DNA from: Candidatus Saccharimonadota bacterium
GTDB lineage: Bacteria; Patescibacteriota; Saccharimonadia; Saccharimonadales; EFPC-124
Direction: 5' to 3'
NCBI GenBank assembly: GCA_016880595.1
Contig: JAEHDC010000017.1
Location: forward strand, 2,463 to 26,462
DNA: 24,000 nt
Shown: positions 1,199 through 20,491 of the stretch, piece by piece
How positions within the stretch are numbered: position 1 is the first letter of the stretch
Layout: every line of letters starts with the position of its first letter
Program-made: the position numbers and the translations under genes
The notes under the pieces: generated by a model
Told to the model about the DNA's origin: nothing
Databases searched by the model: none
Seen by the model: the letters and a program-made list of their open reading frames with translations, nothing else

Positions 1199-1285
1199 GC
1201 GCGAGTGGCGGAATTGGTAGACGCGCTAGCTTCAGGTGCTAGTGTCCCTCGGGACGTGGAGGTTCAAGTCCTCTTTCGCGCACCA
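1199..1285 (+). tRNA. tRNA-Leu (anticodon CAG), class II tRNA with encoded CCA
   Basis: Acceptor stem GCGCGAG pairs with TTCGCGC (one G-U). D-arm is GCGGAATTGGTAGACGC. Anticodon stem CTAGC/GCTAG has loop TTCAGGT (anticodon CAG). Long variable arm TGTCCCTCGGGACGT, T-arm GGAGGTTCAAGTCCTCT, discriminator A, CCA at 1283..1285. Confidence 0.93.
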
Positions 1286-1437: not shown

Positions 1438-2535
1438 TCAACAAGCAACTCTTTCATGTGTTCCACATAGTATTTGGTATATTTCAAGATGGTCGGTATG
1501 TCGGCGGTTTTTTTTGGTTGCTGTTTCTTCATTCTTGGTTTCTAGGTTGGTAATTTCTTGCTCCAATTTCACTACATCTTCCTCCATGTATTTGATTGCT
1601 GTTTGTGAGTTTACGATTTTCATTTTGTTTACGATAACTTTTATCTCCGATTCCAGCTCCTCGCGCCTTTTGGCGTAGTTTTCTTTGTCGGTGTCAACTT
1701 GTGCTTGCCTTTTCTTCCAGACGGCAATAACGGCTTCCATGACTTCGTTAAAGCGTTCAGGCTTGACAGTAACGCGCTCTATAAACTCGCTCACAGCAGC
1801 GTCAAAATCCTTTCTTGGAACTCTAAAGTAATGACCGTGATGGCTGCAATGGTAGGCAGGGTAGTATTTGCCAAGCCTGCCGCGCGAAGCACTGCCTAGA
1901 AGCAAATGGTTGCACTCTGGACAGCATATTACTTTGCGATAGGGAAACTCATTGTTGAACACATTTTTCTTGACGAATTTTGGGTTCTTTGGGGCTTCGC
2001 CAACTACTGGATGGTCTGGGTCACTTGGGTCAATTGTAATTTGAATCTTACCGCGATTTGCAGCGTTAAACAGCTCTATAGAAACCAAGCCAGCAAATTT
2101 ACATTTTACTGGCTTTTCGCCTGTCCATTTCTCTGTATTAACTCCGGCGTAGATGGTTTTCTTAATATAGGCACGCAGTAGTTTACTGGTCATCGGTTTG
2201 CCACCAGTTTGGCGGGCAACCCTTGTGCGGTCATGTTTGTCGCGTACAATTTTTACTGGCGTTTTAAACCCTAGACGGTTCATTTCTTGTGCTATTTGTT
2301 CGTCACTTAAAGTGCCTTGAGATCTAAGTTCGTACATCCTTTTTATGATTTGCCCTTCGCTGGGCAGTTCTGCAAGGATAGTGCGCTTGCCATTATTGGT
2401 TTCGATTTTGTCAGTTTTATAGCCGTATGGTGCGCTGCGCGACCAATAGCCGAGTTGTGTATAGCGTATCTCTGAGCCGATCATGCGAGTCAAAATATCT
2501 CGTACTTCATCTTTTGCGCGTTCGGCCTCCAACAA
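1438..2535 (-). CDS. serine recombinase, recombinase domain + zinc-ribbon + coiled-coil segment (out of frame with the catalytic segment)
   Basis: Track ORF of 365 aa (nominal TTG start). LLEAERAKDEVRDILTRM continues the alpha-E helix of the catalytic domain. APYGYK and the Cys/His cluster CCPECN...YHCSHHGH are typical of large serine recombinases. The C-terminus has a heptad-rich coiled coil. Confidence 0.8.
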   Translation of the reverse strand: MLEAERAKDEVRDILTRMIGSEIRYTQLGYWSRSAPYGYKTDKIETNNGKRTILAELPSEGQIIKRMYELRSQGTLSDEQIAQEMNRLGFKTPVKIVRDKHDRTRVARQTGGKPMTSKLLRAYIKKTIYAGVNTEKWTGEKPVKCKFAGLVSIELFNAANRGKIQITIDPSDPDHPVVGEAPKNPKFVKKNVFNNEFPYRKVICCPECNHLLLGSASRGRLGKYYPAYHCSHHGHYFRVPRKDFDAAVSEFIERVTVKPERFNEVMEAVIAVWKKRQAQVDTDKENYAKRREELESEIKVIVNKMKIVNSQTAIKYMEEDVVKLEQEITNLETKNEETATKKNRRHTDHLEIYQILCGTHERVAC

Positions 2536-2536
2536 T

Positions 2537-2971
2537 TCAGTTTTGCGTGATGGGGGTATGAACGCTCCAACGGTATTTCATACCTAGATGTTCAAGGGTA
2601 TTCACTTTTGTATTGTTAATGACGCCGTACATGTCCTCAAGGTCAATGTCGTGCGGCTCAAGTTGACACTTTAATAAATCGTAAGCAGTAGCTCCGGCAC
2701 GAGTAAAACGGTCAATCGACTTAATTAACACGACTTTAACGTTATTTTTTGGATTTACGGCATAGTCTATCACATGCTGCATGGGCTGAACCGCGCCAGA
2801 TGCGGATTCCAAATAGCTTAGAATTTCTACAAGTTCAATCCCGTGCAAAGAAGCATAGCGTTTGCCCTGTTCTATTTGGGCTTCTGGTGAGTCGCCGTCA
2901 ATGCCTTGCCCTGTAGTAGAAACCCGTACCGCCAGTACACCCCTACGTTGCTTTTGGGTGTCGTACGTCAT
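2537..2971 (-). CDS. serine recombinase, N-terminal catalytic (resolvase) domain segment
   Basis: Track ORF of 144 aa. It has VLAVRVSTTGQ (catalytic Ser context) and KSIDRFTRAG (the conserved D-R-x-x-R region of resolvase/invertase catalytic domains). The ATG at 2971 overlaps the stop of the upstream small ORF (ATGA). Confidence 0.8.
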   Translation of the reverse strand: MTYDTQKQRRGVLAVRVSTTGQGIDGDSPEAQIEQGKRYASLHGIELVEILSYLESASGAVQPMQHVIDYAVNPKNNVKVVLIKSIDRFTRAGATAYDLLKCQLEPHDIDLEDMYGVINNTKVNTLEHLGMKYRWSVHTPITQN

Positions 2972-3478: not shown

Positions 3479-3510
3479 AAGGAGGGGTGGTTAAAAAACC
3501 ATCCCTCCTT
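3479..3510 (-). terminator. strong stem-loop overlapping the DUF2958 stop codon (possible terminator/attenuator; no clear U-tract)
   Basis: Minus strand AAGGAGGGATGGTT-TTTT-AACCACCCCTCCTT: 14-bp stem with one mismatch and a 4-nt loop. It is followed by TGGAGGC rather than a U run, so intrinsic termination is uncertain. Confidence 0.3.
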
Positions 3511-3820
3511 GTCCAAATGCCGCAAGGTCTTTGACGCGCGTTGGACGGAAGAATATATCTCGCTCGACATGCAACCCAAGCGGCCCCGTAACTTGGCTGA
3601 TCTCCGAAAGTGAGAAGTAGCCAAATTCCGCCTCATGGCCATCCACTAGCCCCCAACAAGTAGCATCGCCGTCAAATTCAATCACATACCACGTCCAATT
3701 CGACGCAGGGTGAAAAAATTTAGCCTGTGCGATTTTTTCCTCCAGCGATTTATGCTCGGTGCCGTAAAGTTTGGGCAACTTATTTGCCAAACTTTTACTC
3801 ATCAGACTAACATGCCCCAT
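3491..3820 (-). CDS. DUF2958-family protein (plasmid/ICE-associated)
   Basis: 109 aa. KLPKLYGTE...AKFFHPASNWTWYVIEFDGDATCWGLVDGHEAEFGYFSLSEISQVTGPLGLHVERDIFFRP follows the DUF2958 signature (LPxLYsqE, KFFtPxsxWTWYxxE, fGLVxGxExElGYFSLsEL, ERDxxFxP). SD GGAGGG lies 6 nt before ATG 3820. Confidence 0.85.
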   Translation of the reverse strand: MGHVSLMSKSLANKLPKLYGTEHKSLEEKIAQAKFFHPASNWTWYVIEFDGDATCWGLVDGHEAEFGYFSLSEISQVTGPLGLHVERDIFFRPTRVKDLAAFGQGGMVF

Positions 3821-4059: not shown

Positions 4060-4821
4060 TTGCAGAAATTTGAGCCTAGATACAGACGTCCATTAAACTC
4101 AGAACAAGTAGAGATATTAGATATTCTCTATAAATTTAGGTTCGTGACAGTAGCAACCTTGAGGGACTATTTTTTTGAGACAAATCCAGGCATGAATATT
4201 TTTAAAAGGCTTGAGACGCTAGCAGAGCAGGGATTTATAGCAAAGCGTTACTTTGACAATTACAGGCTACTGCACAAACCCGTAGCTTATTATTTGTTGC
4301 CGGATGGTGCGCGCAAGCTAGATGAGTGCCGCGATGAAGATGAAGCTGGGGTCAATGCTAAACAAATTTATAGGGATAGTGCGGTCAGTGAACAATTCGC
4401 CATGCACTGCGTAGCTATTTTCAATCTGTACAACCGTTTGGATAAAAAATATGGCGATGATCTAGACTTTTTAACCAAAAGCGATCAAGCCAATCTGGAG
4501 AGTTTTCCAAAATTAAAACCTGACGCATATTTGATTTTGGAGACAGCCCAAGAAGCGCACCATTATTTTGTAGATATTCTGGATGACGACGCACATTTGT
4601 TAGTAGAGGCATCAAAGAAAATAAAGCGCTATATTGAGTTGCGCAAAAGTGCCGATTGGACAGATTTTTCAGAAAATGCGTTTCCTAAGATAATCTTTGT
4701 TTGTAATTCGGAAAACGCTTGCAAAAGAGTGCAGAAACGCTGCGGAGCTATCCTAAACAAAACCTGGACACTAGATATAGCCTTTGAGGTCACTAACATA
4801 TCCGAAATTACCTTGAGCTAA
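4060..4821 (+). CDS. replication-relaxation family protein (Replic_Relax-like: N-terminal winged helix + nuclease-like core)
   Basis: 253 aa, nominal TTG start. LNSEQVEILDILYKFRFVTVATLRDYFF...IFKRLETLAEQGFIAKRYF...VAYYLLPDGARKL matches the wHTH pattern of this family. It is followed by H-containing helix EQFAMHCVAIFNLY and KPDAYLILE...YFVDILDDD (the PDa...ffvE.D core). Assigned by pattern recognition, not by search. Confidence 0.6.
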   Translation: MQKFEPRYRRPLNSEQVEILDILYKFRFVTVATLRDYFFETNPGMNIFKRLETLAEQGFIAKRYFDNYRLLHKPVAYYLLPDGARKLDECRDEDEAGVNAKQIYRDSAVSEQFAMHCVAIFNLYNRLDKKYGDDLDFLTKSDQANLESFPKLKPDAYLILETAQEAHHYFVDILDDDAHLLVEASKKIKRYIELRKSADWTDFSENAFPKIIFVCNSENACKRVQKRCGAILNKTWTLDIAFEVTNISEITLS

Positions 4822-4981: not shown

Positions 4982-5299
4982 ATGAACGAATTAAACGTTG
5001 CAGCTATTACATTACCAAATGGCGCCAAGGTGTACGTACGATCAGCTGATGCGGCCGCTGAGCTGCAAACTGGGAGAAAGTTGGGTTTTAAGGAAGGTAA
5101 GTTTGATGATGTAGCGAATGTCATTGAAGGCATATGTGATAGTTTGCGTGATGCCTTGCTAAAGGCTAAGCCGGATAATGCCACAGTTGAATTTGACCTG
5201 GAGCTAACATGGAAAGCCGGTAATATATTGGCATTATTCGCTAAGCCTGAGGCTACTGGGGATATTAAAGTTATATTTGAATGGACTAAGACGAAATAA
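4982..5299 (+). CDS. small trypco2-like (CU044_2847-like) protein, function unknown
   Basis: 105 aa. Strong SD GAGGGTGGGG lies just upstream of ATG 4982. The C-terminal pattern PDNATVEFDLELTWKAGNILALFAKPEATGDIKVIFEWTK resembles the 'evEFglkl...G...a...a.fkVtl.W' signature of trypsin-co-occurring domain 2 proteins. Confidence 0.5.
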   Translation: MNELNVAAITLPNGAKVYVRSADAAAELQTGRKLGFKEGKFDDVANVIEGICDSLRDALLKAKPDNATVEFDLELTWKAGNILALFAKPEATGDIKVIFEWTKTK

Positions 5300-5450: not shown

Positions 5451-6287
5451 CTAGCACCTTTCAAACACGGCAATCATGCGGTCCGAAGTTTTAGGATTGT
5501 ATTCAGACTTATCAAAATTGCCATAGCAATAAACAAGTTTGAAGCCGTGCGGTTTGAGCAGTTTTTTGAGTTCAGAAGTACTGTACATCCTGGCCAGAGT
5601 TTGGTCGACCACAACGCTAGCCTCGTCAGAATGAACGTCTTGAATAATACTCGTAAAGACCGCTTCATAAACTTTGTCATGAAGATACACCTTCCTCCTT
5701 ACGACCGTGTCAATCTGGAGGCCGTTGAATTCACAAACTCTGTGGTCAACTTCCTCATCTGGTTTCTGTCGTTGATAGTTTTTGGAATCAAGTATCAAGA
5801 TGCCACCTCGCTTTATGTGAGCTGAGCATTGTTTGGCAAAAGCATTTACATCTTTTGTCTGTGACATATAAACGTACGAGTCCCAAAGCGAATAAGCACA
5901 ATCGACTGTGTTATTTATTTTGAAAAAGCGCATGTCGGTTTCATAAAACTCAGCATCAGGCGCCGCCTTTCTCGCAATCTCTAGTAGATAACGTGAAGCG
6001 TCAACGCCAAAACCTGAGTATCCTCTTGAGGCAAGTTCCTTCAAGTGCCTTCCTGTTCCGCAGGCAATGTCGAGGAATGAATTCGCATCGATTCCTGCAT
6101 ATTCTTTGGCCACATCAATTAAGAAGTCCACTTCTTTTTTGGTGAATTCTTCTCTGGAATTCATGGCGTCAAATAGTGGCGCCAACTGGGTATAGTAACT
6201 TTTCCCTTTGGAATAATCAGAAAAAGAAATGTCGTTTTTAAGTAGTTTTAAATATGGAGTGTAATAAATGGAGTCGATAATATTCAT
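5451..6287 (-). CDS. class I SAM-dependent methyltransferase
   Basis: 278 aa. Motif I is FLDIACGTGRHLKELA, with acidic post-I residue GFGVDAS, then YETDMRFF and GGILILD, which fit Rossmann-fold methyltransferase motifs I-IV. Divergent from the Nudix operon across a 99-nt intergenic region. Confidence 0.9.
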   Translation of the reverse strand: MNIIDSIYYTPYLKLLKNDISFSDYSKGKSYYTQLAPLFDAMNSREEFTKKEVDFLIDVAKEYAGIDANSFLDIACGTGRHLKELASRGYSGFGVDASRYLLEIARKAAPDAEFYETDMRFFKINNTVDCAYSLWDSYVYMSQTKDVNAFAKQCSAHIKRGGILILDSKNYQRQKPDEEVDHRVCEFNGLQIDTVVRRKVYLHDKVYEAVFTSIIQDVHSDEASVVVDQTLARMYSTSELKKLLKPHGFKLVYCYGNFDKSEYNPKTSDRMIAVFERC

Positions 6288-6386
6288 AGTTTAAATGTTA
6301 AATAATATAAAAAGTTAAGGATTAGCAAGGCAAGATACCTTACCATCTGCCATACTGTATTTTAATCCGAAAGGCGATTTCTTACC

Positions 6387-6884
6387 ATGACCAAGACGCA
6401 ACACGATAGTGAAACTCGAGCCGAGGGCCAACAAGTTATTGTAGCTTGTGCACTCATTCATCACAGCTTTGATGGCACAGAAAAAATATTCTTGCCAAGA
6501 CGAGCTGACACAAAAAAGTTTATGCCTGGCGTTTATGAGCTACCTGGCGGACATGTCGATTTTGGCGAAGATATCGTGGATGGTCTCAAGCGTGAACTCA
6601 TAGAAGAGTTTGGCAAGAGAATTACCGTCGGTGACCCGTTTACAGCATTCACCTATAAAAATGAAATAAAGGCCTCACATTCTGTTGAGGTCGTTTATTT
6701 TGCGCGGTTTGAAGATAATATTGAAGATATCGAAATTCATCCTGAGGATCATTCTGGATATGAATGGTTCAGTGAAGACGATATCAGTAAAATGCTCATA
6801 GGCGGCAAAACTGAAGACGATGAAGAGTATAAACTAATCAAGAGAGCTTTTAGCCTTTTAAGAGGTGAACCTCTTCGATCATAA
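6387..6884 (+). CDS. stand-alone Nudix hydrolase
   Basis: 165 aa. Canonical Nudix box GGHVDFGEDIVDGLKRELIEEFG (6546..6614) fits GX5EX7REUXEEXGU. Confidence 0.9.
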   Translation: MTKTQHDSETRAEGQQVIVACALIHHSFDGTEKIFLPRRADTKKFMPGVYELPGGHVDFGEDIVDGLKRELIEEFGKRITVGDPFTAFTYKNEIKASHSVEVVYFARFEDNIEDIEIHPEDHSGYEWFSEDDISKMLIGGKTEDDEEYKLIKRAFSLLRGEPLRS

Positions 6885-7192
6885 GCTATCAACCTAAAGG
6901 TTTTTAGCCGGGCTATTATTACTCAAAGTTCTTTAAGCTTGGAGATAGTTTGGCGGCATACAACCAAGAATCTTAGCAGAAATGATTAAGTTAAATAATG
7001 TGCGGCGATAGCATAAGACCGTTTGTCTGGTATTTATTGTTTAGATAAACTTCCCAAATACATATTTCTTTTGGCCTTCAATAAGTTAATATTGTGCCTC
7101 TATTTAGTAATCGCATCACCAAAGTATAGCACATATAAGCTTTTTGGCGAGTGGCCATAATCCCATTAGTAATTTCAAGAAAGGAAAATTCT

Positions 7193-8011
7193 ATGAGTAG
7201 CAGCCTGAGATTTTCTGGCAAGACACTGCGCGCTGGCGTAATCGGGCTTGGACGTCAATCGGTAAACGACCACATACCTGCTTTGCTGCGGCGAAAAGAC
7301 GTTGAGCTGGTGTGCGTGTCTGACGTTAATGTAAGCGCCCACGAAAATTTTTATAATGCATTTCCTGATCTAAAGGGCAAGACAAAAGCATTCCAAAACT
7401 TTCAGGAAACCATTAAAGAAGGTGTTGATTTTGTAGTGGTTGCAATTCCTCACGATCAATATTTTGAGGTAAGCAAAGCGCTTTGCCAGAATAAGATTCC
7501 TTTTATGAAGGAAAAGCCATTTGCTCGTACTTTAGATGAAGCGATAGCTATGGCAAGTATTAATGACATTGAAAAATACTGCTTTATTTGCACTCAGCGA
7601 CGCTTCCACCCACTATATGAAAAAGCACATGAGGCATTGGATAGTCTCGGTAAATTAGCCTCATTTAATGCAATATATACACTTAATCTCCCGCAACCCG
7701 CTTCTGGCTGGCGTAAATTTACTGATGTTTGCGGCGGAGGAGTGATCATTGATATGGGCTATCATATTATTGATCAATTGATCTGGTGGTTTGGTTATCC
7801 TGATGATATTCACGCTAAAATTTCTAATTTATCTACTGAAGAAGATCTATACGATACGGAAGATTCCGCAACAATAGTCTTCTCCTACTACGACGCAGGC
7901 TTGCAGGGTTCGATTGTTCTTTCTAGGTGCACTGGGGTTAAAGCGGAGGGCTACCAAGTGTCTGGCGCAAAGCGTTTTATGGAAGGTGGAAAAAACCCAA
8001 CTTTTTATTAA
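7193..8011 (+). CDS. Gfo/Idh/MocA oxidoreductase, N-terminal segment
   Basis: Track ORF 7151..8011 trimmed to ATG 7193. Carries the GxGxxG-like GLGRQS and the EKP motif. Confidence 0.8.
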   Translation: MSSSLRFSGKTLRAGVIGLGRQSVNDHIPALLRRKDVELVCVSDVNVSAHENFYNAFPDLKGKTKAFQNFQETIKEGVDFVVVAIPHDQYFEVSKALCQNKIPFMKEKPFARTLDEAIAMASINDIEKYCFICTQRRFHPLYEKAHEALDSLGKLASFNAIYTLNLPQPASGWRKFTDVCGGGVIIDMGYHIIDQLIWWFGYPDDIHAKISNLSTEEDLYDTEDSATIVFSYYDAGLQGSIVLSRCTGVKAEGYQVSGAKRFMEGGKNPTFY

Positions 8012-8291
8012 GGATCGCCTTTCTGGAGATCCTGTTTGTACCGAAGAAAGAAGATATGCTGAAGAAATGATGGATAATCAGCTTGATTTCTTCATTAGCA
8101 CATTTACAAGTGGACACAATTTCGAGAGAAATCACCTCGACAACCTTCTCAATATGAAATTCATTGAACGCTGTTATAGAAATAAGCTGTCTAAAGACCA
8201 AACCTTGTTTATTAACGCTTACAAGCATCGAAATTCAATAGTTGAATCTACAAGAAAGAGTGCATTAGGAGGGCTAAATGAAGTACGATAA
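7914..8291 (+). CDS. Gfo/Idh/MocA oxidoreductase, C-terminal segment (real coding probably begins ~7990 after the frame change)
   Basis: Track ORF of 125 aa. The first ~25 residues overlap segment 1 in another frame and are probably not translated. The end overlaps the next gene start (8278) by 14 nt. Confidence 0.6.
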   Translation: MFFLGALGLKRRATKCLAQSVLWKVEKTQLFIKDRLSGDPVCTEERRYAEEMMDNQLDFFISTFTSGHNFERNHLDNLLNMKFIERCYRNKLSKDQTLFINAYKHRNSIVESTRKSALGGLNEVR

Positions 8292-9453
8292 GGAACGCCA
8301 ACTTAATGAATTGGGCAACGAATTACGCAAAGAGTATAAAGAGGTTATTGTTGATTTCATTATCCAGGATGGTACGAGCCATAAGGCTCTTGTGCAAAAA
8401 CGATCTATGACACGCAATCTTTTTCCTGGTGCCTGGGAATTTCCTGGTGGTCATTTGGAGCCTGACGAAAGCTTAACAGGATGTTTGAAACGCCTTGTCT
8501 ATGAAGAAGGACATATGTGCCTGAATGAAGTTGTTAGTATGGTACATCTATTCACCTGGGATTCCGACAAGGATGTTGTCAATGCGCAATTCCTTGTTAA
8601 CGCGAGCGGTAATTTTTCTTTTAATAAAAATAAAATATCTGAATATCGTTTTATCGACTCAGAATGCTTAGACCTGCTTCTTGAGGGCACACAAGAATCG
8701 CCAATTTACAGAGGTGCCTTTTACTCATTCGAGTATCTCAAAATGTTAAAAGAAAAAAGAATCGACTTGTTCGAAACACTTCTTTTCTTCGATCAGATGG
8801 TAGCCGGATTCTTTGATTTTCTACGCTGCGAAGAGCGGGCGCCAAAAGTAGTAATTGGTAAAGAGAATGAGAAGAAATTTAACCTAGATAAGGAGAGCGG
8901 CCTGCTATCCATATCGCCAAGTTTCTTGCGTCATTATGATAAATTCGGGTGCGCCTCGATAATTCTGCACTTGATCTTTCATAACTACCGCCAAAACATT
9001 CTTTCCTATGATGATGTCAAAGCAATTCGTGGCATCATGGGCAAAAATCTAATGTTCTTTGTAGATATTGTTGCGGATAGCTATACCTACCTCTATTTTG
9101 AGCGTTATTATGGTTTTACCGAAGCAAAGTATTTAGAACTTTGCGGCCGACTCATCCAAGAATATCAAGCAGAAAAGCTAGAAGATTCAAAGTTTACAAG
9201 GCTCCTGGGGTCGCTGCTTACGATTGCAGAGAGAAGCGGTCAAGGTTTTAATGTAGTTTTGCCAGTACTAAATAATAGTGATTACAAACTATATATGATA
9301 AGGTTTGATCGTTCACTCATATATTCGAATGTGTTGATCGAAGAAAAATTATTCGGTAAATGCGTAGGCATCATGACAAATAAAAAGATAAGTGAAAAAG
9401 ACTTTGTGTCGACATTTGAAAAATTAATAACCTTAGCAAAGACAGGAAAATAG
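8278..9453 (+). CDS. two-domain protein: N-terminal Nudix-fold domain with a degenerate Nudix box + ~230 aa C-terminal domain of unknown function
   Basis: 391 aa. SD AGGAGGG lies 4 nt before ATG 8278. The box GGHLEPDESLTGCLKRLVYEEGH (8446..8514) keeps G, E and the EE pair but has RL instead of RE and GH instead of xG. The C-terminal region (about residue 160 onward) has no motif I recognise except HLIFH (H-x3-H, no Glu). Confidence 0.75.
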   Translation: MKYDKERQLNELGNELRKEYKEVIVDFIIQDGTSHKALVQKRSMTRNLFPGAWEFPGGHLEPDESLTGCLKRLVYEEGHMCLNEVVSMVHLFTWDSDKDVVNAQFLVNASGNFSFNKNKISEYRFIDSECLDLLLEGTQESPIYRGAFYSFEYLKMLKEKRIDLFETLLFFDQMVAGFFDFLRCEERAPKVVIGKENEKKFNLDKESGLLSISPSFLRHYDKFGCASIILHLIFHNYRQNILSYDDVKAIRGIMGKNLMFFVDIVADSYTYLYFERYYGFTEAKYLELCGRLIQEYQAEKLEDSKFTRLLGSLLTIAERSGQGFNVVLPVLNNSDYKLYMIRFDRSLIYSNVLIEEKLFGKCVGIMTNKKISEKDFVSTFEKLITLAKTGK

Positions 9454-9454
9454 C

Positions 9455-11080
9455 ATGGCTTTAAGACATTTTTGCACCACAACATATATTTTTAATGAAG
9501 AGGGCGACAAGTGCCTTCTTATCCATCACAAAAAATTACCATTTCTTCTACCTCCAGGAGGCCATATTGATGAAGATGAAGAATACTTAGAATCTTCGCA
9601 GCGTGAAGTTGCTGAAGAACTTGGCTTCGCAAAAGAAGATTTGTTTTACCCAGAATATCTTCAGCTTAAGGACAACGAGCGCTTACAACCCTGGGCAATC
9701 CAAGAATATACAATAGTTCCTGACGAGCATTTTCATTATGACCTAGTATTCGGAGCTATCGTTAAAGAAAGTACGCCAATTAAGCCGAATGAAGGCGAAA
9801 GCCAGAATGTTCGATGGATAAAGATTGAAGATATAGATTTGTTTGAAACCACTGATGAGTGCAGAGATAATATTATAAAAATGTCAAAAAAGATTCGCGA
9901 TGCTCGCGAAGTTGAACGCGTTCAGCAAGATCTTTATATCTGGCCCCGCTACGATATAAGCCTAAAGAAAGATTTGTGTCGCTTTGTTGAAGGCCGCGAT
10001 TTTGGCACATGGAATCTTGGCGATTTATACGAGGGAGTTCCGTGCAGTTTTGCACAAAAGATGGGCGTTGACTATGGAATCTTTACGTCAACGGGTACGG
10101 CAGGTTTGCACGCCATTCTAATGGCGCTTGGTCTTAAACCAGGTGATGAAGTCATTGTGCCGAGTATGACATTTGTTCGAGCGGTGACGCCGCTTAATCA
10201 CCTAAGCCTCCAGCCAGTTATTGCAGATATTGACCCGAGCACAGGTAATATAGATCCTATTTCAATTGAAGCCAACATTACGCTTAAAACTAAAGCCGTT
10301 ATCGTAGTGCATATGTGGGGCGTACCGGCTGACTGCGAACGCATTTCTGAAATCTGCAAGAAGCATGATATTCGTATGATCGAAGACTTCTCTCATGCTC
10401 ACTTTTCAATGTATAAAAATCAATTTGTCGGCAGCTTTGGAGATGCGGCTTTTGCGTCATTACAGCGAAAGAAAAACGTTTCTGTTGGCGAAGGCGGCAT
10501 TATTGTCACAAAAGACAAGAAGACTTACGGGCGCCTACAGCATATTACTTCGCCTGGCTCTTTTATGGATCAGAGCAATTACTCCGATATTGATTTCTCG
10601 GGTTACGGACTTAACATGCGCATTAATCCATTTGGGGCGCTCACAGTTAAAAATTTGCTGCCCAAAATAGACGCTATTCTTGAAGACAAGCGCGTAGCCA
10701 TAGAAAAGCTAACCACGATTCTCGCCAAACACAGTGACAAGTTTGAGTTAGTTGAAATTCCTGATTACGCCGACAAATCGGCTTTGTCTTGGTATTCATA
10801 TAAATTAAAACTAAAGAATACAACCCTTGCGGAGCTAAAGACGAAAAAACTTTGGAAATTTTCAGACTTTGGCTATCCGCCTATTGCAAGTCACTGTTAC
10901 TGGGAAAAAGATACTAATTACTTCCCGTTTTGTTTAGGTATCAAGCCTGAGGTGCGAACGAAATTACCCGGTCAAGAGGCATACCTTAAAAACCGCGTCA
11001 CGCTTAATATTCCTACAGTTCCAGCATCTTATTGGACCGACAAAGTGGTTGCGAAATGGGAGGACGCGCTGGCAAACTAA
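9455..11080 (+). CDS. Nudix domain fused to a DegT/DnrJ/EryC1/StrS-family PLP-dependent (sugar) aminotransferase
   Basis: 541 aa. N-terminal canonical Nudix box GGHIDEDEEYLESSQREVAEELGF (9557..9628). From about residue 200: GIFTSTGTAGLHAILMALGLKPGDEVIVPSMTFVRAVTP...PVIADIDPSTGNIDP...KTKAVIVVHMWGVPADCERISEICKKHDIRMIEDFSHAH...VGSFGDAAFASLQRKKNVSVGEGGIIVT. This is collinear with DegT-family signatures, including the PLP-lysine context. Confidence 0.88.
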   Translation: MALRHFCTTTYIFNEEGDKCLLIHHKKLPFLLPPGGHIDEDEEYLESSQREVAEELGFAKEDLFYPEYLQLKDNERLQPWAIQEYTIVPDEHFHYDLVFGAIVKESTPIKPNEGESQNVRWIKIEDIDLFETTDECRDNIIKMSKKIRDAREVERVQQDLYIWPRYDISLKKDLCRFVEGRDFGTWNLGDLYEGVPCSFAQKMGVDYGIFTSTGTAGLHAILMALGLKPGDEVIVPSMTFVRAVTPLNHLSLQPVIADIDPSTGNIDPISIEANITLKTKAVIVVHMWGVPADCERISEICKKHDIRMIEDFSHAHFSMYKNQFVGSFGDAAFASLQRKKNVSVGEGGIIVTKDKKTYGRLQHITSPGSFMDQSNYSDIDFSGYGLNMRINPFGALTVKNLLPKIDAILEDKRVAIEKLTTILAKHSDKFELVEIPDYADKSALSWYSYKLKLKNTTLAELKTKKLWKFSDFGYPPIASHCYWEKDTNYFPFCLGIKPEVRTKLPGQEAYLKNRVTLNIPTVPASYWTDKVVAKWEDALAN

Positions 11081-11117
11081 TACGCAGACTTGTTCACTGA
11101 TATAATGAAAGGGTAAT

Positions 11118-12872
11118 ATGAGCAAAAAATATATTTATGTGTTTGGCGGCCTGCAATATTTTAAAGCTATGCAACAAGAAGCTAATAAGGATAAGTTTGT
11201 CCTTGTGCATATTGCAGATGAGTTAGAAGATGCCTCCAGCTATGCAAAATCTCCGGAAATCATTGCCGCACTTTTTGAAGATGCTTACGATAATAAAAAA
11301 GAGGTATCTGCCTTTATAAACCTTGGTCGCGGCACGGTAATTGGCGGCCTAGAGAATATCGCAAAAGCTTGGGACATCATTAAGGAAAGGCATCCTGAGT
11401 TAAAAAGTATTCTCTTTGTCGGGCCATCGCATAAAGCAGCAAAAACTTTCTTTGATAAAAAACTAATATGGCGCATTCTTGAAAAAGAGGGTATCGCCAC
11501 CCCAAAGACACTGGAGATTGATACAACGCTAAATATGGAAGAGATTATGAAGCGTAGCTCAGGCTTCCCGTTTCCAGCAGTCCTAAAGGCAACAAAGCTT
11601 TCTGGTGGACGCGGTATGAAGCTTGTTAATTCTTCAGAGGAACTCGGCGATACTTTTAATGAATTTAAAAAAGCCAATCTGGGTGAGCTAATTTTAACTG
11701 AGTATGTTGATGGAATTGAGGTCTCATTTGCAGTGCTTCGTCTAGGAAACACGTTTATGCGCATGCCTGCCTGCTACAAAGAAAAAACTTCATTCGATTT
11801 AAAGCATCCAGACTCAAAGGTCAAGTTAGCGGGTGGATTCAAAGAATTTGAGGATGCCTATGGTGCAGTCGAAAAACTTATGACGACGCTTAACATAACG
11901 GGATGGCTTTACCTAGAAGGGATCCTTCACAAAGACGACAACGGTAAATCTACAATTCAATTTATTGAGGGTGCAACTCGCCTAAGCGGTAATTCACCTA
12001 TAGAAATCGGCTCTCTGGAGGGATTTAACTTCTATAATACGCTAATGAGCTGGATTGAAAATGCTTGCATTGGCTTTGCTCATAGAAATCGTTTATGTAT
12101 ACAGTATGCCTCTTTTAAGCATCACGGCGAAGCGGATGTAAAAAAGCTATTAGCTCTTAATTGGGTATTGGAAGCTCGCTATGAAGATCTTGCAAAAGTA
12201 CCATTTTCCACTGATGACAGAACGCGAATTCGCATTAGCTTTATCGGTGAAACATTTGATTTGGCAAAAGAACGCTCAAATGAGATTGCTAAAATCGTAG
12301 ATAACCCTGAGTTTACTCTTGACATCCACAAGGCGTTAGATGATTATGCTAACTCAGATTATATTTATAAGCCACGCAGGCTATCTTCTGGCGCCTGGAG
12401 CGAGAACATAACTTGGGAATTCTACATCTCGAGTCATTTACCAGATCCAAAATTATGCACTGCTGCATTTTGCCTTGCGCTTCAGGGCGATAACAGAGTT
12501 GTCTTAACAAAAACAAAGCGCGGTTGGGAAATGCCTGGCGGCCACATGGAGTCTGGCGAAACGTTAGAGCAAACACTTTTTCGTGAAACACACGAAGAGG
12601 GTGGTTATACGCCGCAGCAATACAGGCTATTTGGCTACAGAAAAGTAATTTCAAAAAAACCCATTCCTGCCCGTGACGGTAAAGAGTATCCATTTCCAAC
12701 AAGCTACATTCCGCATTTTATTGCAAAGAGTAACTTCCCTCTTGCTGGCGTACATGGTGATGAAGACGAAGTGCTAGATAGGCGTGCGTTTGAATTATCT
12801 GAGCTATGCGGTCTTGATGTTAGAGAAGCTGCAATCATAGAATCAGGCTTGCTACACAAAGAGAAATTGTAA
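11118..12872 (+). CDS. ATP-grasp ligase domain fused to a C-terminal Nudix domain
   Basis: 584 aa. SD AAAGGG upstream. ATP-grasp features: KKLIWRILEKEGIATPKT, FPFPAVLKATKLSGGRGMKLVNSSEEL (Lys + Gly-rich loop), LILTEYVDGIEVSF, YLEGIL...IQFIEGATRLSGN (metal-binding E/N region). C-terminal canonical Nudix box GGHMESGETLEQTLFRETHEEGGY (12537..12608). Confidence 0.85.
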   Translation: MSKKYIYVFGGLQYFKAMQQEANKDKFVLVHIADELEDASSYAKSPEIIAALFEDAYDNKKEVSAFINLGRGTVIGGLENIAKAWDIIKERHPELKSILFVGPSHKAAKTFFDKKLIWRILEKEGIATPKTLEIDTTLNMEEIMKRSSGFPFPAVLKATKLSGGRGMKLVNSSEELGDTFNEFKKANLGELILTEYVDGIEVSFAVLRLGNTFMRMPACYKEKTSFDLKHPDSKVKLAGGFKEFEDAYGAVEKLMTTLNITGWLYLEGILHKDDNGKSTIQFIEGATRLSGNSPIEIGSLEGFNFYNTLMSWIENACIGFAHRNRLCIQYASFKHHGEADVKKLLALNWVLEARYEDLAKVPFSTDDRTRIRISFIGETFDLAKERSNEIAKIVDNPEFTLDIHKALDDYANSDYIYKPRRLSSGAWSENITWEFYISSHLPDPKLCTAAFCLALQGDNRVVLTKTKRGWEMPGGHMESGETLEQTLFRETHEEGGYTPQQYRLFGYRKVISKKPIPARDGKEYPFPTSYIPHFIAKSNFPLAGVHGDEDEVLDRRAFELSELCGLDVREAAIIESGLLHKEKL

Positions 12873-12965: not shown

Positions 12966-15638
12966 CTAAGCGGAACGATTTCTCCTATAGCTCCTTCTGC
13001 GCTTAAGCGTATCTTTGCCGCCAGTCGTCTTTTTAATGGTTTCACTGGCTGGTTTTAGCTCTTCTTTTTTCGGTTCTGGCTTTGGCGGCGGAGTGTAGGG
13101 TTTGCTGTAAAGCTCTTTGGAGGTCTTTTTGACTAGGTTGGCTATTTCTTTGCTGCCTTGGTCGGTTATCAGGATGGTTTCGCCGGAGAATGTTTCGGGA
13201 GCGTCGCCAGCGCCTATGCGTATGTAAAAGTTGTGCTTTGGCAGGCGCATAATTTCACCTTCTTCAATGCGGTCTTTAAACTGGTGTAACATTAGTTCTT
13301 CGTCGGCGGGGTTGCCGGTGCGGAAGCAAACAACTGTGCCTGCGTTATCTAGGATGTTTTCGGTAAGATCACGATCTTGCTGTGATGTTGACTGCTCGGC
13401 CATGGTTAAGAAAAACTTATATTTGCGTGATTCAGAAAGTATCTGTGTGAATAGTGGCGATATAAAGTTTTGGCATTCGTCAACGTATAGGTGGAATGGG
13501 CGCCGGTCATCTTCTTCAATTTCAATGCGCCGGTATGCTGCAAGCTGTAATTTGGCAAGGACTGTCGTGCCTATCACTTCGGACGTGTCTTCGCCAATTG
13601 CACCTTTAGCCAGGTTGCAGATCAGGATTTTGCCGGAATTCATTATATCGTCAAAACTTATTGTGGATTCTTTTTGCTCTAGCATGCGCCGTGTTACCGC
13701 GGATAGCTGGAAGCGTCCGATCTTGGTAATAACGCCGTCCATAGATTTGTATTTTTGGTAATCTCCCGCTAAGCCAAATTCATGCAGCCAGAAGTCTTTA
13801 AGGTATTCGTCCTCCAGCTTGGGCACAATCTGTTTGCGGTACTCGGCGTCATTCAGCAATTTGCGGATAGTGAACAAGGTGGCGCCTTCAATGTAAAAGG
13901 CGGTGTGAATAGCGTTGCGCAGGACATGCTCAATGCGATGGCCGCCGGTATCGTCATCGGAGAACACTTTGCGGAAGATAGACACAATCGCCTCCGTTAC
14001 AAAGTCTTTAGCTATCAGAAGTTCGTCACCTTCTAGCCCGGGCGGAAGCTCCAACAGGTTCATGCCTATAGGGCTGCTAATTTCTTTGGGATAGAGGTAG
14101 ATGACGTCTTTAATGCGTTCCTTGGGTATGTATTTGAGCAGCCACATAGCCATGTCTCCGTGCGGGTCAATTACGGCCGCGCCTTTGCCGCTAAGAATAT
14201 CTTGCAAGATAGCATATTTTAGCAGTGTGGTTTTGCCGCTGCCTGTGGCGCCAATGACGTACATGTGGCGTTCGCGCTCGTCTGCTATTAAACCGATATT
14301 CGTTATGTTGCCATGGTAAATATTGCGCCCTAGCACTACATCAAAATTACCTTTGTCGGCGCGGCTCCTGATGGCCAATGGTGGCGCAAGTGCTTTGCCG
14401 AACGAGTGTGCTACGTCGCCATTATGTACCGCCGTGCTGTTAGGAAAATGATAAATATCTGATACCTCTTTTGCTGACAGCAGGCAGCAATTTTTTCCAA
14501 AAAGTCCGGGCAGCCGGTGCTCAAATGCAAAGCGCCTGTATTTGGTACGTAGGTTATACGGAAAATTGAAACGGCTTTTTATGGCCTGGCGGCTTGTGCG
14601 ATATACATTGAATGATTTGCGTATATCGTTGCCTTTGGCTAAGCTAGCCTTGCTCGCTACGACCAATGCGCGAATGTTGGTTAAAAACAAGTCGCCGTTT
14701 AACTTCTCGCTGACTTGTTGTGCCAGCTCTTCTTCTAAAGATCCCATGTCGCGCTCCGGCCTTATGCCAGCGGCAACCTGTTTGTAGTGGCTTGCAGTGC
14801 TGTACTGCGGGGATTTGCCGGATTTTGACGGGCCGTGGTAAACATCGCCAGCCGCAGAAGTTACGCCTAGTAGCGCCGAGCTAATACCATCCTTCAGTAC
14901 GCCACCAAGTGATTTGTGATGTCTTTTGCCTAGCGCGTCCAAATGCTCCTTATTGTGTAACAACCGGTTGCAAATCTTATCTACCTGTCGCAAGGTGGTA
15001 GGCGACAACACAAATTGAAGCGCCATAACTTCGCCCGGCTGCAAATTGGCCATTGCGGTTAGCAGATAGCCAACGGGGTCGGCTTGTTCAAAGGATTCGT
15101 GACCCTGCAAAGGATAGTAGCGGTTTTTTAGCTTGAACTCTAACAACCTGGCGCGCAGTCGCTGGGCTTTCGTCAGATAATCCCCGACCTCTTTAACGCG
15201 AATGTCTGTGCCGAACCCGGCAATGGCTTTTTCAAAACTGTCGCGGCTCTCTTTTGGCACGCAGAAGATATAACGAATGCCTTGCTCGCGCGTACCGACT
15301 AACTCCACGGAAAACGCCATTCGGCGCAGCAGTAACTTGTCTTGAAGCGTGCGTGTGTCATTATTGCCGTGCAAAGTTTCAAAGAGTTGTTTGTGCGCTT
15401 CTGGTGTTTTGTCGTAAAAAGCAGGTGGCGTTAATTCCAAGAACAGCAAATCACGGCGTAGCAAATGACGCATTTCAAGTACTCGCAACGTTAAAAGTGC
15501 GAGCTGCCATAATAAATATGCGCTTATTACCAATATGGCTGCAATTAACGCAATACGCGGCAATGAAGAGACGAAGGCATCCAAGAAGCGCACAAAACCG
15601 TCAAACTGTTCTTGGGTTGGAAAATCTGTGTCAATCAT
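12966..15638 (-). CDS. virD4: type IV coupling protein (VirD4/TraD/TrwB-like ATPase) with N-terminal membrane anchor and long non-ATPase N-terminal region
   Basis: 890 aa. TM segment IALIAAILVISAYLLWQLALLTL. Walker A is VIGATGSGKTTLL (14229..14252), followed by AAVIDPHGD. Walker B is FHLYVDECQNF. Lys/Pro/Arg-rich C-terminal tail. The ATG overlaps the CHAP gene stop (4 nt). Confidence 0.82.
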   Translation of the reverse strand: MIDTDFPTQEQFDGFVRFLDAFVSSLPRIALIAAILVISAYLLWQLALLTLRVLEMRHLLRRDLLFLELTPPAFYDKTPEAHKQLFETLHGNNDTRTLQDKLLLRRMAFSVELVGTREQGIRYIFCVPKESRDSFEKAIAGFGTDIRVKEVGDYLTKAQRLRARLLEFKLKNRYYPLQGHESFEQADPVGYLLTAMANLQPGEVMALQFVLSPTTLRQVDKICNRLLHNKEHLDALGKRHHKSLGGVLKDGISSALLGVTSAAGDVYHGPSKSGKSPQYSTASHYKQVAAGIRPERDMGSLEEELAQQVSEKLNGDLFLTNIRALVVASKASLAKGNDIRKSFNVYRTSRQAIKSRFNFPYNLRTKYRRFAFEHRLPGLFGKNCCLLSAKEVSDIYHFPNSTAVHNGDVAHSFGKALAPPLAIRSRADKGNFDVVLGRNIYHGNITNIGLIADERERHMYVIGATGSGKTTLLKYAILQDILSGKGAAVIDPHGDMAMWLLKYIPKERIKDVIYLYPKEISSPIGMNLLELPPGLEGDELLIAKDFVTEAIVSIFRKVFSDDDTGGHRIEHVLRNAIHTAFYIEGATLFTIRKLLNDAEYRKQIVPKLEDEYLKDFWLHEFGLAGDYQKYKSMDGVITKIGRFQLSAVTRRMLEQKESTISFDDIMNSGKILICNLAKGAIGEDTSEVIGTTVLAKLQLAAYRRIEIEEDDRRPFHLYVDECQNFISPLFTQILSESRKYKFFLTMAEQSTSQQDRDLTENILDNAGTVVCFRTGNPADEELMLHQFKDRIEEGEIMRLPKHNFYIRIGAGDAPETFSGETILITDQGSKEIANLVKKTSKELYSKPYTPPPKPEPKKEELKPASETIKKTTGGKDTLKRRRSYRRNRSA

Positions 15639-16180
15639 GGCGCTTCCTTGTAATGTATAAAATTGTATTTTTGCGCATCTAAAACTGTAAAAGTCCGCTC
15701 GCTTACTACATTTAAGCCTTTAGCGTTCATTTCCGAGATTGTCCAAGAGCCAGTTGCAGGATCAACTTTTGTAACATACGCAACGTGGCCTAAACCACCG
15801 GCAGAGTTGGCGGTTTGCATGATTGCGCCAGCGGCTGGTGATTGATCAACTTTATAGCCTTGGAGCTGCGCATTCAACGCCCAGTCGGCGGCATTACCCC
15901 ATGTATTGGATATGGGATGCCCGTCATTTTTGCGCATGATAAATACCCAGTAGGTGCAGTTGCCCCAAGCGTAAGTATTATCTTCTGGCGAGTTCCCGGT
16001 GTAATATATGCCATCACCAGAATTCCCCGCACTAACCTCACCGCTAATTAAACTGTCAATATCCGGAATCGAAGCCACCGCCACGCCGGGTAAAATTAGT
16101 AAAAAGAGTACTATGCCAAGAATAACTCCGGTTTCAACTTTGAATGAAACAAGTTTTTTGCGGAGCAGCAGCGGCATCAT
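15635..16180 (-). CDS. secreted/membrane-anchored CHAP-domain peptidoglycan hydrolase (VirB1-type function)
   Basis: 181 aa. N-terminal hydrophobic segment GVILGIVLFLLILPGVAVA. CHAP catalytic context YAWGNCTYWVFIMR (Cys) and GLGHVAYVTKV (His). Confidence 0.85.
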   Translation of the reverse strand: MMPLLLRKKLVSFKVETGVILGIVLFLLILPGVAVASIPDIDSLISGEVSAGNSGDGIYYTGNSPEDNTYAWGNCTYWVFIMRKNDGHPISNTWGNAADWALNAQLQGYKVDQSPAAGAIMQTANSAGGLGHVAYVTKVDPATGSWTISEMNAKGLNVVSERTFTVLDAQKYNFIHYKEAP

Positions 16181-17910: not shown

Positions 17911-18527
17911 TGCTGCTCCTTTCGGATGTACGAATTATTAAGCAAAGTAGCAACTTGCTCACTGATCGGCTGGCGCTTGGCTTGGGCAGGGCTGTAAAAA
18001 GTGTGGAATAAATCGAGTAATTCCAAATTATTTAATTGGCGTGTCCGCATTCCTAGTCGCATCAACCCTTTACCTACCATATCGGCATTGAGAGAAAGTT
18101 GTTCTTTGGCGGTTTCAAAGTCATTGGCAGCGTATGGCAGCACTACATAAAAGTGGCGCGATAGGATTTTATTATCGCGCACCAAACTTTGCACAAACTC
18201 GGTATAGTTTTCTATTTGGTCGCGGTAAATTGGTTTTTTTTCTTCGGCCAGCAGTTCTTGAACGTCTGCCAGATATTTGTCCATGTCTAGTTCACGTATC
18301 CGAACAACGATTTCTAGCGGGCAGGGCAAAGAGTCCAAGAAGCTTTCATAGGTGTCAATTAGCGCGTCTTGTTCTTCCTCGCTTTTTAGCTCAAAATTAA
18401 CTGGGGATACTTCAATGACCACGCGATATTGGCTATTGGGCAATAAAAGCATATTGCCTTTAACGCCATTAATGTTAATTTGTTGCCGCGCTGAGGCCTT
18501 CTTGCGGGACTTCTGTAAGATGGACAC
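17907..18527 (-). CDS. VirB4 N-terminal-domain-like protein (separate ORF; split VirB4)
   Basis: QQININGVKGNMLLLPNSQYRVVIEVSPVNFELKSEEEQDALIDTYESFLDSLPCPLEIVVRIRELDMDKYL matches the N-terminal region of Gram-positive VirB4/PrgJ-type proteins. I place the start at GTG 18527 (AAGGAG 6 nt upstream) rather than the track's ATG 18563. Its stop overlaps ATG 17910 (ATGA), and AAGGAG lies 8 nt before that ATG. Confidence 0.6.
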   Translation of the reverse strand: MSILQKSRKKASARQQININGVKGNMLLLPNSQYRVVIEVSPVNFELKSEEEQDALIDTYESFLDSLPCPLEIVVRIRELDMDKYLADVQELLAEEKKPIYRDQIENYTEFVQSLVRDNKILSRHFYVVLPYAANDFETAKEQLSLNADMVGKGLMRLGMRTRQLNNLELLDLFHTFYSPAQAKRQPISEQVATLLNNSYIRKEQQ

Positions 18528-19011
18528 GCAATTCTCCTTTCTTGGTTGTAGTAAAGTGGACATTTGCAGCCGGATCGGCGATTAGGCTTTCAATTCTGGC
18601 GCGTTCTGTAGCAGAGAGATGCATTAGATGTTTGACGACATCTTTTTGAGTTTTAGTTTCTGGTTGCGGCGTGTTGTCTATGGCGGCTGTTATTGAAATC
18701 TCACGAGCATGAGCACTGTTTTTATTGAACAGATAATATTTTGGTCGAGTATTGTAATGAAGCAAGGTAATTCCCCAAAATAGTAGAATTTTGCCTTTGA
18801 TTCGGATGGCGAGCAATGCGGAGATCACCGCTACGCAGACTATCAGCACAACTTTGTAGACTGCATAATTAAAAAATGGCGGCAGTACAACAAACACTGC
18901 GCTGCCGCCAAAAATTGGCGAGACCAACAATAACAATTGAGAGAGGCTAAGTTTGCCTGCGATTCTGTCTTCAACGGTGGTGATCTGAGCTGGAACTATA
19001 GTGGATCTCAT
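18475..19011 (-). CDS. PrgI-family / VirB3-like small membrane protein
   Basis: 178 aa. N-terminus VPAQITTVEDRIAGKLSLSQLLLLVSPIFGG followed by two TM helices fits the PrgI pattern (Vp..i...e.ki.g.lTlrQl). The ATG overlaps the upstream stop (ATGA). Confidence 0.6.
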   Translation of the reverse strand: MRSTIVPAQITTVEDRIAGKLSLSQLLLLVSPIFGGSAVFVVLPPFFNYAVYKVVLIVCVAVISALLAIRIKGKILLFWGITLLHYNTRPKYYLFNKNSAHAREISITAAIDNTPQPETKTQKDVVKHLMHLSATERARIESLIADPAANVHFTTTKKGELRVHLTEVPQEGLSAATN

Positions 19012-19514: not shown

Positions 19515-19534
19515 AAATCAAACAAAAATGGTTG

Positions 19535-20488: not shown

Positions 20489-20491
20489 AAT

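Follow-up and report, generated by a model that had tools for sequence, protein, structure and literature searches.

A conserved Nudix-rich gene block in Saccharimonadales and a possible route to acylated aminonucleotides

Introduction

Why would four Nudix domains be packed together with, and in part fused to, a dehydrogenase, an aminotransferase and a ligase, and what would such a set of genes make? The question is raised by a 24,000-nucleotide (nt) stretch of contig JAEHDC010000017.1 of a Candidatus Saccharimonadota bacterium, here called the window, in which a class I S-adenosylmethionine (SAM) methyltransferase gene is divergent from genes for a free-standing Nudix hydrolase (NudA), a Gfo/Idh/MocA dehydrogenase (Gfo), a 391-amino-acid (aa) protein with a Nudix domain, a Nudix-DegT aminotransferase fusion and an ATP-grasp-Nudix fusion (Table 1; coordinates are those of the window). 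An earlier note on this DNA had read the block as cargo of an integrative conjugative element (ICE) and as a candidate new system that oxidizes, transaminates, acylates and methylates a nucleotide-linked sugar. We find that the block is conserved well outside the window and propose, by analogy with the puromycin and 3'-amino-3'-deoxyguanosine (ADG) pathways and at slightly less than an even chance, that it is a biosynthetic operon whose product would be an amino-deoxy, N-acylated and probably N-methylated derivative of a nucleotide.

Results

Pfam and NCBIfam profile scans of the open reading frames (ORFs) of the window recovered the gene content described by the earlier note: all six ORFs, including the divergent SAM methyltransferase, and the four Nudix boxes are present exactly where it had placed them, and every domain call (methyltransferase, four Nudix, Gfo/Idh/MocA, DegT and ATP-grasp) is matched by Pfam. 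As it had also said, no glycosyltransferase or transporter is encoded in the block. The five genes on the forward strand are indeed co-oriented and closely packed, the Gfo and 391-aa protein genes overlapping by 14 nt, with gaps of 1 nt and 37 nt after that, but they amount to four intact genes and an interrupted one, that of Gfo.

Gene-neighborhood searches with the two fusions, a check that the note had suggested, showed that the block is conserved and that its genes co-occur outside the window. The Nudix-DegT fusion is found in ∼25 homologous clusters with 54 to 100% identity, among them that of a Candidatus Saccharimonadales metagenome-assembled genome (MAG) with 80% identity. The 391-aa protein directly precedes the fusion in 10 of 10 loci with enough flanking sequence (the window, L001, L002, L007, L034, L035, L036, L040, L056 and L059; L-numbers denote related loci or contigs compared with the window), and Gfo and a small Nudix gene lie further upstream in 9 of them. 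The ATP-grasp-Nudix family comprises 34 clusters with 36 to 100% identity, including one from a Candidatus Saccharimonadia MAG, and it is accompanied by Gfo and DegT, usually directly upstream, in all 10 distinct loci with flanking sequence (the window, L037 to L041 and L043 to L046). Because this linkage persists even where Gfo and DegT are only 25 to 38% identical to those of the window, Gfo, DegT and ATP-grasp-Nudix are, by sequence comparison, the deepest conserved core, on which the Saccharimonadales version builds with Nudix fusions and the 391-aa protein. The Nudix-DegT loci include a 160-kb contig unlike those of the candidate phyla radiation (CPR) (L001) and, in L035, one that encodes a Pup ligase, so the block moves between phyla. 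Judged by the synteny and fusions kept across distant relatives, the genes form a functional unit.

One of these loci, L002, has no detectable Gfo. It encodes a 384-aa protein (11630 to 12784 of that locus) between Nudix-DegT and an MccF-like peptidase; the protein has no Pfam or PDB match and might supply the oxidoreductase or ligase that this variant lacks.

Four significant Nudix domains within 6.5 kb are not a chance occurrence. Pairwise identity among them is only 27 to 37%, and over short stretches only, which argues for four distinct Nudix lineages and against recent duplication. In gene order, boxes 1, 3 and 4 match GX5EX7REUXEEXG, and box 2 reads KRLVYEE, with the first Glu of REUXEE absent and the final Gly replaced by His. 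In the DegT-fused Nudix domain, Gly35, Gly36, His37, Glu42, Arg50, Glu51, Glu54, Glu55 and Gly57 are near-invariant across 13 fusions (51 to 100% identity), and in the ATP-grasp-fused domain, which carries the clade motif YPFPxSYIPHF, the box is fully invariant across the family. NudA, which lies upstream of Gfo in relatives as well, has its best NCBIfam matches among MutT/NudI/NudG-type nucleoside triphosphate (NTP) pyrophosphohydrolases, and the best PDB sequence matches of the ATP-grasp-fused domain are also MutT-type NTP pyrophosphohydrolases (NudC, E of ∼0.09). The Nudix domains of the window are closer to such enzymes than to ADP-ribose or nucleoside diphosphate (NDP)-sugar hydrolases. 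The Nudix domains had been proposed to be recognition or release modules; with their catalytic boxes invariant, the three intact domains are most likely hydrolases rather than mere recognition modules, and the fourth is a conserved pseudo-Nudix.

The number of Nudix genes varies among relatives. L007, L036, L040, L056 and L058 to L060 have a paralogue of the ATP-grasp-fused clade between NudA and Gfo, encoded on the opposite strand, that is missing in the window; L040 has all genes of the block together with a fifth, stand-alone Nudix gene, which the window has lost. The same clade (GWE[LM]PGGH, YPFPxSYIPHF) is widespread as stand-alone genes in metagenomes (L047 to L118), mostly with no Gfo or DegT gene nearby.

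The 391-aa protein was modeled with AlphaFold2 with a predicted local distance difference test score (pLDDT) of 90, and its N-terminal half matches Nudix folds in the PDB. The degenerate box noticed earlier is confirmed, and the degeneracy is kept across 18 homologues. The C-terminal half, previously left as an unknown domain, matches no Pfam family; modeled alone (pLDDT of 89.7), it gave only weak Foldseek matches in the PDB (E of 0.14 to 0.7, probability up to 0.99), to the minimal zincins jannalysin/selecase and to IrrE/PprI. Remote relatives of ∼240 aa, found by profile search, keep HExxH and D[IV]EAD at the positions where the window protein has HLIFH (His231 to His235), in which the catalytic Glu is missing, and DIVAD in place of DIEAD. 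The model and these homologues point to a zincin-like fold, and a rare one, with 65 representatives at an E of ≤0.001 in an exhaustive profile search. As modeled, the protein looks like a double pseudoenzyme, and because both the Nudix and the zincin-like domain lack a catalytic Glu, and are conserved in that state, it is probably a noncatalytic ligand-binding, scaffold or immunity subunit.

None of Gfo, DegT and ATP-grasp reaches a curated NCBIfam family cutoff, and their PDB relatives are generic. Gfo scores 73 bits against the UDP-GlcNAc 3-dehydrogenase model, which has a cutoff of 450, and DegT stays below every equivalog cutoff, with ∼140 bits for ArnB, PseC and LegC against cutoffs of 420 to 631. 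The best PDB match of DegT is the generic QdtB (about 1e-39 to 5e-39), with NtdA among the weakest (7e-21). Its Schiff-base Lys340 (codon 10472 to 10474) aligns with Lys185 of QdtB and is invariant in the 13 fusions. The ATP-grasp domain scores 31.2 bits for GARS_A (cutoff, 27) and 23.7 bits for CPSase_L_D2 (cutoff, 19.8); its best NCBIfam matches are to an archaeal Ddl-like ATP-grasp (5.7e-19), then PurD and Ddl, again with no curated cutoff reached, and Lys114, Lys157, Glu195 and Glu201 are invariant in 17 homologues.

The methyltransferase has glycine/sarcosine N-methyltransferase and daptide amine methyltransferase as its best NCBIfam matches, both far under their cutoffs, and by these similarities probably acts as an amine N-methyltransferase. 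At most loci a methyltransferase gene is divergently placed. The window type occupies this slot in L007, L034, L036, L040, L055 and L058 to L060 (46 to 86% identity), and a nonhomologous Methyltransf_33 (EgtD-like) protein occupies it in L002 and L037. Because two unrelated methyltransferase families fill the same divergent slot, methylation appears to belong to the pathway.

The Gfo gene is split by one extra A in an A6 homopolymer at 7986 to 7991. As called, its ORFs are 7151 to 8011 and 7914 to 8291, with a homology-backed start (MSSSL) at 7193; after ...FMEGGK the reading shifts to the +1 frame, in which the C-terminal ∼100 residues are encoded, down to 8291. In tblastn searches with intact orthologues (354 to 360 aa, 76 to 83% identity) the alignment moves to the +1 frame after residue ∼267, and deleting one A restores the frame (MEGGKTQLFIKDR; compare MEGTKAQLSIKER in L034). 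Homologues are single ORFs of 344 to 360 aa, and the gene is intact in L007, L034, L036, L040 and L059. The identical frameshift occurs in L004, a Logan contig (run SRR13038211) with ∼100% identity to the window. It is either a real mutation or a sequencing error.

Most operon partners of the block in relatives encode enzymes that act on nucleotides or nucleosides. The L002 operon encodes an inositol-monophosphatase-family protein (Inositol_P, the family of Pur3) and an S66 peptidase that scores 283 bits to the MccF-like BA_5613 and 138 to MccF versus 41 to 64 to LdcA-type (murein carboxypeptidase-type) proteins. In L039, an S66 peptidase gene ∼5 kb upstream shows the same order with a smaller margin (128 bits to BA_5613 and 126 to MccF versus 60 to 87). 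An LdcA-type identity was rejected for both, since the MccF-side scores are higher; MccF cleaves the amide between an amino acid and a nucleotide. L039 also has a CYTH gene directly 3' of ATP-grasp-Nudix and, beside its triad of core genes, genes for a nucleoside 2-deoxyribosyltransferase-like protein and a radical SAM protein. Further partners were seen elsewhere: in L037, a cytidine deaminase gene follows DegT after 9 nt, L043 encodes a nucleoside phosphorylase, and L036 and L057 encode Ham1 NTPases; an MFS transporter gene overlaps the first Nudix gene in L035, and a NADAR gene is convergent to the triad in L038. L041, L044 and L045 have an HAD phosphatase gene between DegT and ATP-grasp-Nudix; the 198-aa ORF in the equivalent position of L046 is probably another, and further ones lie near the block in L001, L034 and L040. 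The L-lactate dehydrogenase gene that follows DegT in L034, L040 and L059 was discounted as a pathway partner, being a genuine housekeeping Ldh.

The gene set of an ICE claimed for the window is present, with a tRNA-adjacent recombinase, Replic_Relax, a type IV coupling protein, VirB4-like, CHAP, TraC-like and PrgI-like proteins and pilins, and the right flank (12966 to 20872) is a Gram-positive-type type IV secretion set. The ICE-like element has probably integrated at tRNA-Leu(CAG); its second boundary was not seen in the window, where no search aimed at it or at att repeats was made. No trypsin-like partner of the small Trypco1 protein was seen. The recombinase gene appears to be split too, its Resolvase-domain ORF stopping one base short of the Recombinase-domain ORF, and a second split gene within 24 kb suggests an error-prone assembly or a decaying element. 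The block is thus found on ICE-like elements but is not confined to them as cargo, since elsewhere it is chromosomal, beside ldh or between rpoBC and dnaG. A counter-defense function, another suggestion of the earlier note, found no tie: PADLOC matched only the generic Nudix model PDC-S07 and a mad2 methyltransferase domain, with no signature protein, and IMG/VR viral contigs, scanned with profiles of Nudix-DegT and of the Nudix/zincin-like protein, gave no close relative.

Some loci reached in these comparisons carry other gene sets. In L041 (6081 to 9003), a nitroreductase-family gene and a YcaO cyclodehydratase gene directly 3' of a Gfo-DegT-HAD-ATP-grasp/Nudix operon possibly form a separate cluster for a ribosomally synthesized and posttranslationally modified peptide. 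L005 (8001 to 13625) and L006 (4382 to 9185) pair a stand-alone DegT (∼48 to 50% identical to the DegT domain of the window) with genes for a GMC oxidoreductase and a Ferritin-like protein and an ∼165-aa ORF, on integrase- or recombinase-bearing elements of Caballeronia and other genomes, L005 also having an S1-P1 nuclease gene. This is a different module, apparently not described before, in which Gfo may be replaced by a GMC oxidase. A plasmid of the culturable Pantoea ananatis PNA 97-1R (L135; NZ_CP020945.2, 9531 to 17492) has an uncharacterized operon of NUDIX, Gfo, DegT, class I/II aminotransferase, DegT, FAD monooxygenase, HAD and fatty acid desaturase genes that runs into MtnP past 17492; its stand-alone NUDIX protein is 32% identical to the DegT-fused Nudix domain of the window.

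Table 1. Features of the 24,000-nt window
Feature	Coordinates	Strand	Support or remark
tRNA-Leu(CAG)	1199-1285	+	Adjoins recombinase
Large serine recombinase, split	1438-2971	-	Resolvase-domain ORF 2537-2971; Recombinase-domain ORF 1438-2535, TTG start
DUF2958	3491-3820	-	
Replic_Relax	4060-4821	+	Pfam
Trypco1 (trypsin-co-occurring domain 1), small protein	4982-5299	+	Between Replic_Relax and methyltransferase genes
Class I SAM methyltransferase	5451-6287	-	Pfam Methyltransf_25/11, E 1.6e-13; also Methyltransf_23
Free-standing Nudix hydrolase (NudA)	6387-6884	+	Pfam NUDIX, 1.3e-15; intact box 6546-6614
Gfo/Idh/MocA NAD(P)-dependent dehydrogenase, interrupted	7193-8291	+	GFO_IDH_MocA N-terminal 1.7e-13, C-terminal 2.4e-16 (7151-8011)
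Degenerate Nudix domain of 391-aa protein (8278-9453)	8278-8748	+	Pfam NUDIX, 3.2e-11, residues 25-131; box 8446-8514
Zincin-like C-terminal domain of 391-aa protein	8749-9453	+	Predicted structure and remote homologues
Nudix domain N-terminal to DegT (gene 9455-11080)	9455-9922	+	Pfam NUDIX, 5.4e-12; intact box 9557-9628
DegT/DnrJ/EryC1 pyridoxal phosphate (PLP) aminotransferase domain	9923-11080	+	PF01041, 7.9e-63
ATP-grasp ligase domain, Ddl/PurD-like (gene 11118-12872)	11118-12362	+	Pfam GARS_A, 2.4e-07; ATP-grasp; CPSase_L_D2
Nudix domain C-terminal to ATP-grasp	12363-12872	+	Pfam NUDIX, 1.4e-13; intact box 12537-12608
Type IV coupling protein	12966-15638	-	Pfam T4CP
CHAP	15635-16180	-	
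VirB4-like	16177-17910	-	
TraC-like	17907-18563	-	
PrgI-like	18475-19011	-	
Two type IV secretion system pilins	19535-20872	-	

Discussion

To our knowledge, only one characterized pathway, that shared by the pur and adg gene clusters, has a Gfo-type dehydrogenase together with a DegT aminotransferase and a Nudix hydrolase. Pur10 (an NAD-dependent ATP dehydrogenase), Pur4 (an aminotransferase), Pur7 (a Nudix protein) and Pur3 (a phosphatase) build the 3'-amino-3'-deoxy core of puromycin, their homologues AdgB to AdgE of Photorhabdus, together with the MFS protein AdgA, lead from GTP to ADG, and A201A and cystocin have the same core pathway (PMC11641026, PMC9239236). The likeness of the block to these clusters lies at the family level, as compared by description: a Gfo/RifL-like dehydrogenase, a DegT aminotransferase and a Nudix protein in one operon, a monophosphatase in relatives (of the inositol-monophosphatase family in L002, HAD elsewhere), an MFS exporter in L035 and, in principle, a later amide bond on the new amine and a methylation. 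In contrast to them, the block has four Nudix domains, of which two are fused to the aminotransferase and the ligase, an ATP-grasp protein in the ligase role with no Pur6-type synthetase in the window, and the extra pseudo-Nudix/pseudo-zincin protein. The window also lacks an acetyltransferase-type resistance gene and an inositol-monophosphatase-family phosphatase, and the host is a CPR bacterium or its ICE rather than Streptomyces or Photorhabdus.

Domain content, motifs and linkage are what we observe, and from them we infer every chemical step of the following route. Gfo would oxidize a sugar hydroxyl to a ketone, the likeliest target being the ribose 3'-OH of an NTP, as for Pur10 and AdgB, and the DegT domain would transaminate the ketone to an amine through its PLP-binding Lys340. 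The intact MutT-like Nudix domains would then cleave the NTP analogue to the nucleoside monophosphate analogue and pyrophosphate, mirroring the role proposed for Pur7 and AdgD; this cleavage would commit the intermediate and prevent a chain-terminating amino-NTP from building up in the producer, and fusion would tie the safeguard 1:1 to the enzyme producing or consuming the amine. ATP-grasp would activate a carboxylate, probably that of an amino acid, and ligate it to the new amine, the divergent methyltransferase would N-methylate an amine, and a phosphatase of the HAD or inositol-monophosphatase type, present in relatives, would remove the last phosphate. The expected product would be a puromycin-like aminoacyl-aminonucleoside or aminonucleotide antimetabolite, made from ICE cargo in a Saccharimonadales-type host.

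Several observations weigh against a nucleotide substrate, and some of them speak for an NDP-hexose such as UDP-glucose or UDP-GlcNAc, the main rival, which we regard as unlikely yet a serious contender. On that reading Gfo and DegT would make a 3-amino sugar nucleotide and ATP-grasp would acylate its amine, after which a kanosamine-like amino sugar would be set free by Nudix and phosphatase, or the product would enter a cell-envelope glycan. The best weak NCBIfam matches are indeed to sugar enzymes, UDP-GlcNAc 3-dehydrogenase and IolG for Gfo and the NDP-sugar aminotransferases ArnB and PseC for DegT, and in L037 genes for an NTP_transferase and a Bac_transf sugar-phosphate transferase stand beside ATP-grasp-Nudix and point to an NDP-sugar. 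Gfo, DegT and HAD together make up the NtdC/NtdA/NtdB and RifL/RifK/RifM gene set, and that order is found in L041, L044 and L045. Since Pur10 and RifL are homologous to each other (PMC11641026), the NTP and NDP-hexose readings cannot be told apart at the family level. L037 is, however, the only one of ∼15 related contexts with NDP-sugar or glycan-assembly genes; the window has none, and glycosyltransferase, NDP-sugar synthase and flippase are absent from it and from 9 of 10 related contexts. Three dedicated Nudix domains that hydrolyze the NDP handle would waste an activated glycan sugar, NtdA is a poor match for the DegT domain, and the CYTH, cytidine deaminase, nucleoside phosphorylase, MccF-like peptidase and inositol-monophosphatase-type phosphatase genes of relatives fit nucleosides better. 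Some of these nucleotide-type neighbors may in turn be coincidental, CPR genomes being small and rich in nucleotide salvage. Also on the debit side of a puromycin-like route, the window lacks genes for a phosphatase and an exporter as well as any obvious immunity gene, an exact search of the genome contigs with the published adgB primer found no match, and the frameshifted dehydrogenase may mean that the pathway is switched off in the window copy. Pur6, the puromycin ligase, is moreover not an ATP-grasp protein and is described as having no known domains (PMC11641026).

Remodeling of NAD+ or ADP-ribose, for example amination and acylation of the terminal ribose to give a signal, a toxin or interference with ADP-ribose-derived immune messengers, would suit the common action of Nudix enzymes on ADP-ribose and NAD(H), the NADAR gene of L038 and the frequent placement of the block on ICE-like elements with conflict-type genes (Trypco1, Fic, RadC and toxin-antitoxin). 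We consider it improbable: no ADP-ribosyltransferase, sirtuin, macro, TIR or cyclase partner was seen in any context, the Nudix domains match MutT-type NTPases better than NudC, the triad is also found in the plainly chromosomal settings described above, and neither the generic PADLOC matches nor the profile scans of viral contigs, which gave no close relative, support it. Least probable is that nucleotide house-cleaning Nudix genes and unrelated sugar-modifying enzymes have come together by chance in a compact genome, with partial decay of the region. CPR genomes are dense and Nudix-rich, two genes of the window (Gfo and the serine recombinase) are split, and accessory genes vary by locus, but each fusion is conserved over many clusters with invariant catalytic residues and is syntenic in 10 of 10 loci from several phyla, among them Saccharimonadales, the Pup-ligase-bearing genome and the 160-kb non-CPR-like contig. 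Conservation of the fusions and of synteny essentially excludes this explanation.

Other known systems share parts of the scheme. The kanosamine and 3-amino-5-hydroxybenzoic acid (AHBA) pathways (RifL-RifK-RifM and NtdC-NtdA-NtdB) and the UDP-sugar 3-amination pairs WbpB-WbpE and GnnA-GnnB have Gfo/Idh/MocA oxidation followed by DegT-family transamination, and the Rif and Ntd pathways have an HAD phosphatase as well. They differ in having neither Nudix nor ATP-grasp proteins; NtdA and RifK-type AHBA synthase in the PDB are not the closest relatives of the DegT domain, and the usual neighbors for glycan assembly are missing here. The product proposed for the NTP route, an amino acid amide-linked to a nucleotide, resembles microcin C, and the S66 peptidases in the L002 operon and near the L039 triad are on the MccF side; unlike microcin C, the block has no MccB-type adenylating enzyme and no precursor peptide, and the window has no MccF-like gene. 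Blasticidin S- and gougerotin-type nucleosides, which we take to carry a sugar amine, attached amino acids and N-methylation, presumably offer a further likeness, for which a literature search returned nothing useful; we know of no Nudix protein in their clusters, and the block has no cytosylglucuronic acid synthase.

The earlier note had not recognized the architecture as that of a described system. Full-text searches on the domain combination matched only the cystocin paper, and we came across no published account of this architecture. The combination of multiple Nudix domains, two of them fused to tailoring enzymes, with an ATP-grasp ligase, a pseudo-Nudix/pseudo-zincin partner and a distribution in CPR bacteria and on ICEs appears to be undescribed. 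The chemistry, by the analogy drawn here, probably has a precedent in the Pur/Adg pathway, which includes a Nudix protein and which the note had not named.

Whatever its substrate, the block adds a pseudoenzyme pair, pseudo-Nudix and pseudo-zincin, and the Nudix-DegT and ATP-grasp-Nudix fusions are two clean handles for genome mining. Even were the substrate a sugar nucleotide, the block would amount to an amino-sugar acylation system that is undescribed and conserved in CPR genomes. Were it an NTP, the small puromycin/ADG family of 3'-amino nucleosides would gain an ATP-grasp route to the amide bond, the formation of which is still unresolved for puromycin itself, and fused Nudix domains would represent a design principle for self-protection. 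CPR bacteria are thought to be poor in natural-product pathways. A speculative extension, which we consider doubtful, is that they, Saccharibacteria included, spread an undescribed class of aminoacyl-aminonucleotide antimetabolites on conjugative elements, with the Gfo-DegT-(ATP-grasp-Nudix) core at its center, the fused Nudix domains as safety valves against the producer's own chain terminators and the pseudo-Nudix/pseudo-zincin protein as a new immunity or scaffold subunit. Should the puromycin-like reading of the block be right, even without this extension, episymbiotic bacteria with reduced genomes, whose chemical weaponry is almost unknown, would have a new, widely distributed family of pathways for antimetabolites derived from nucleotides.

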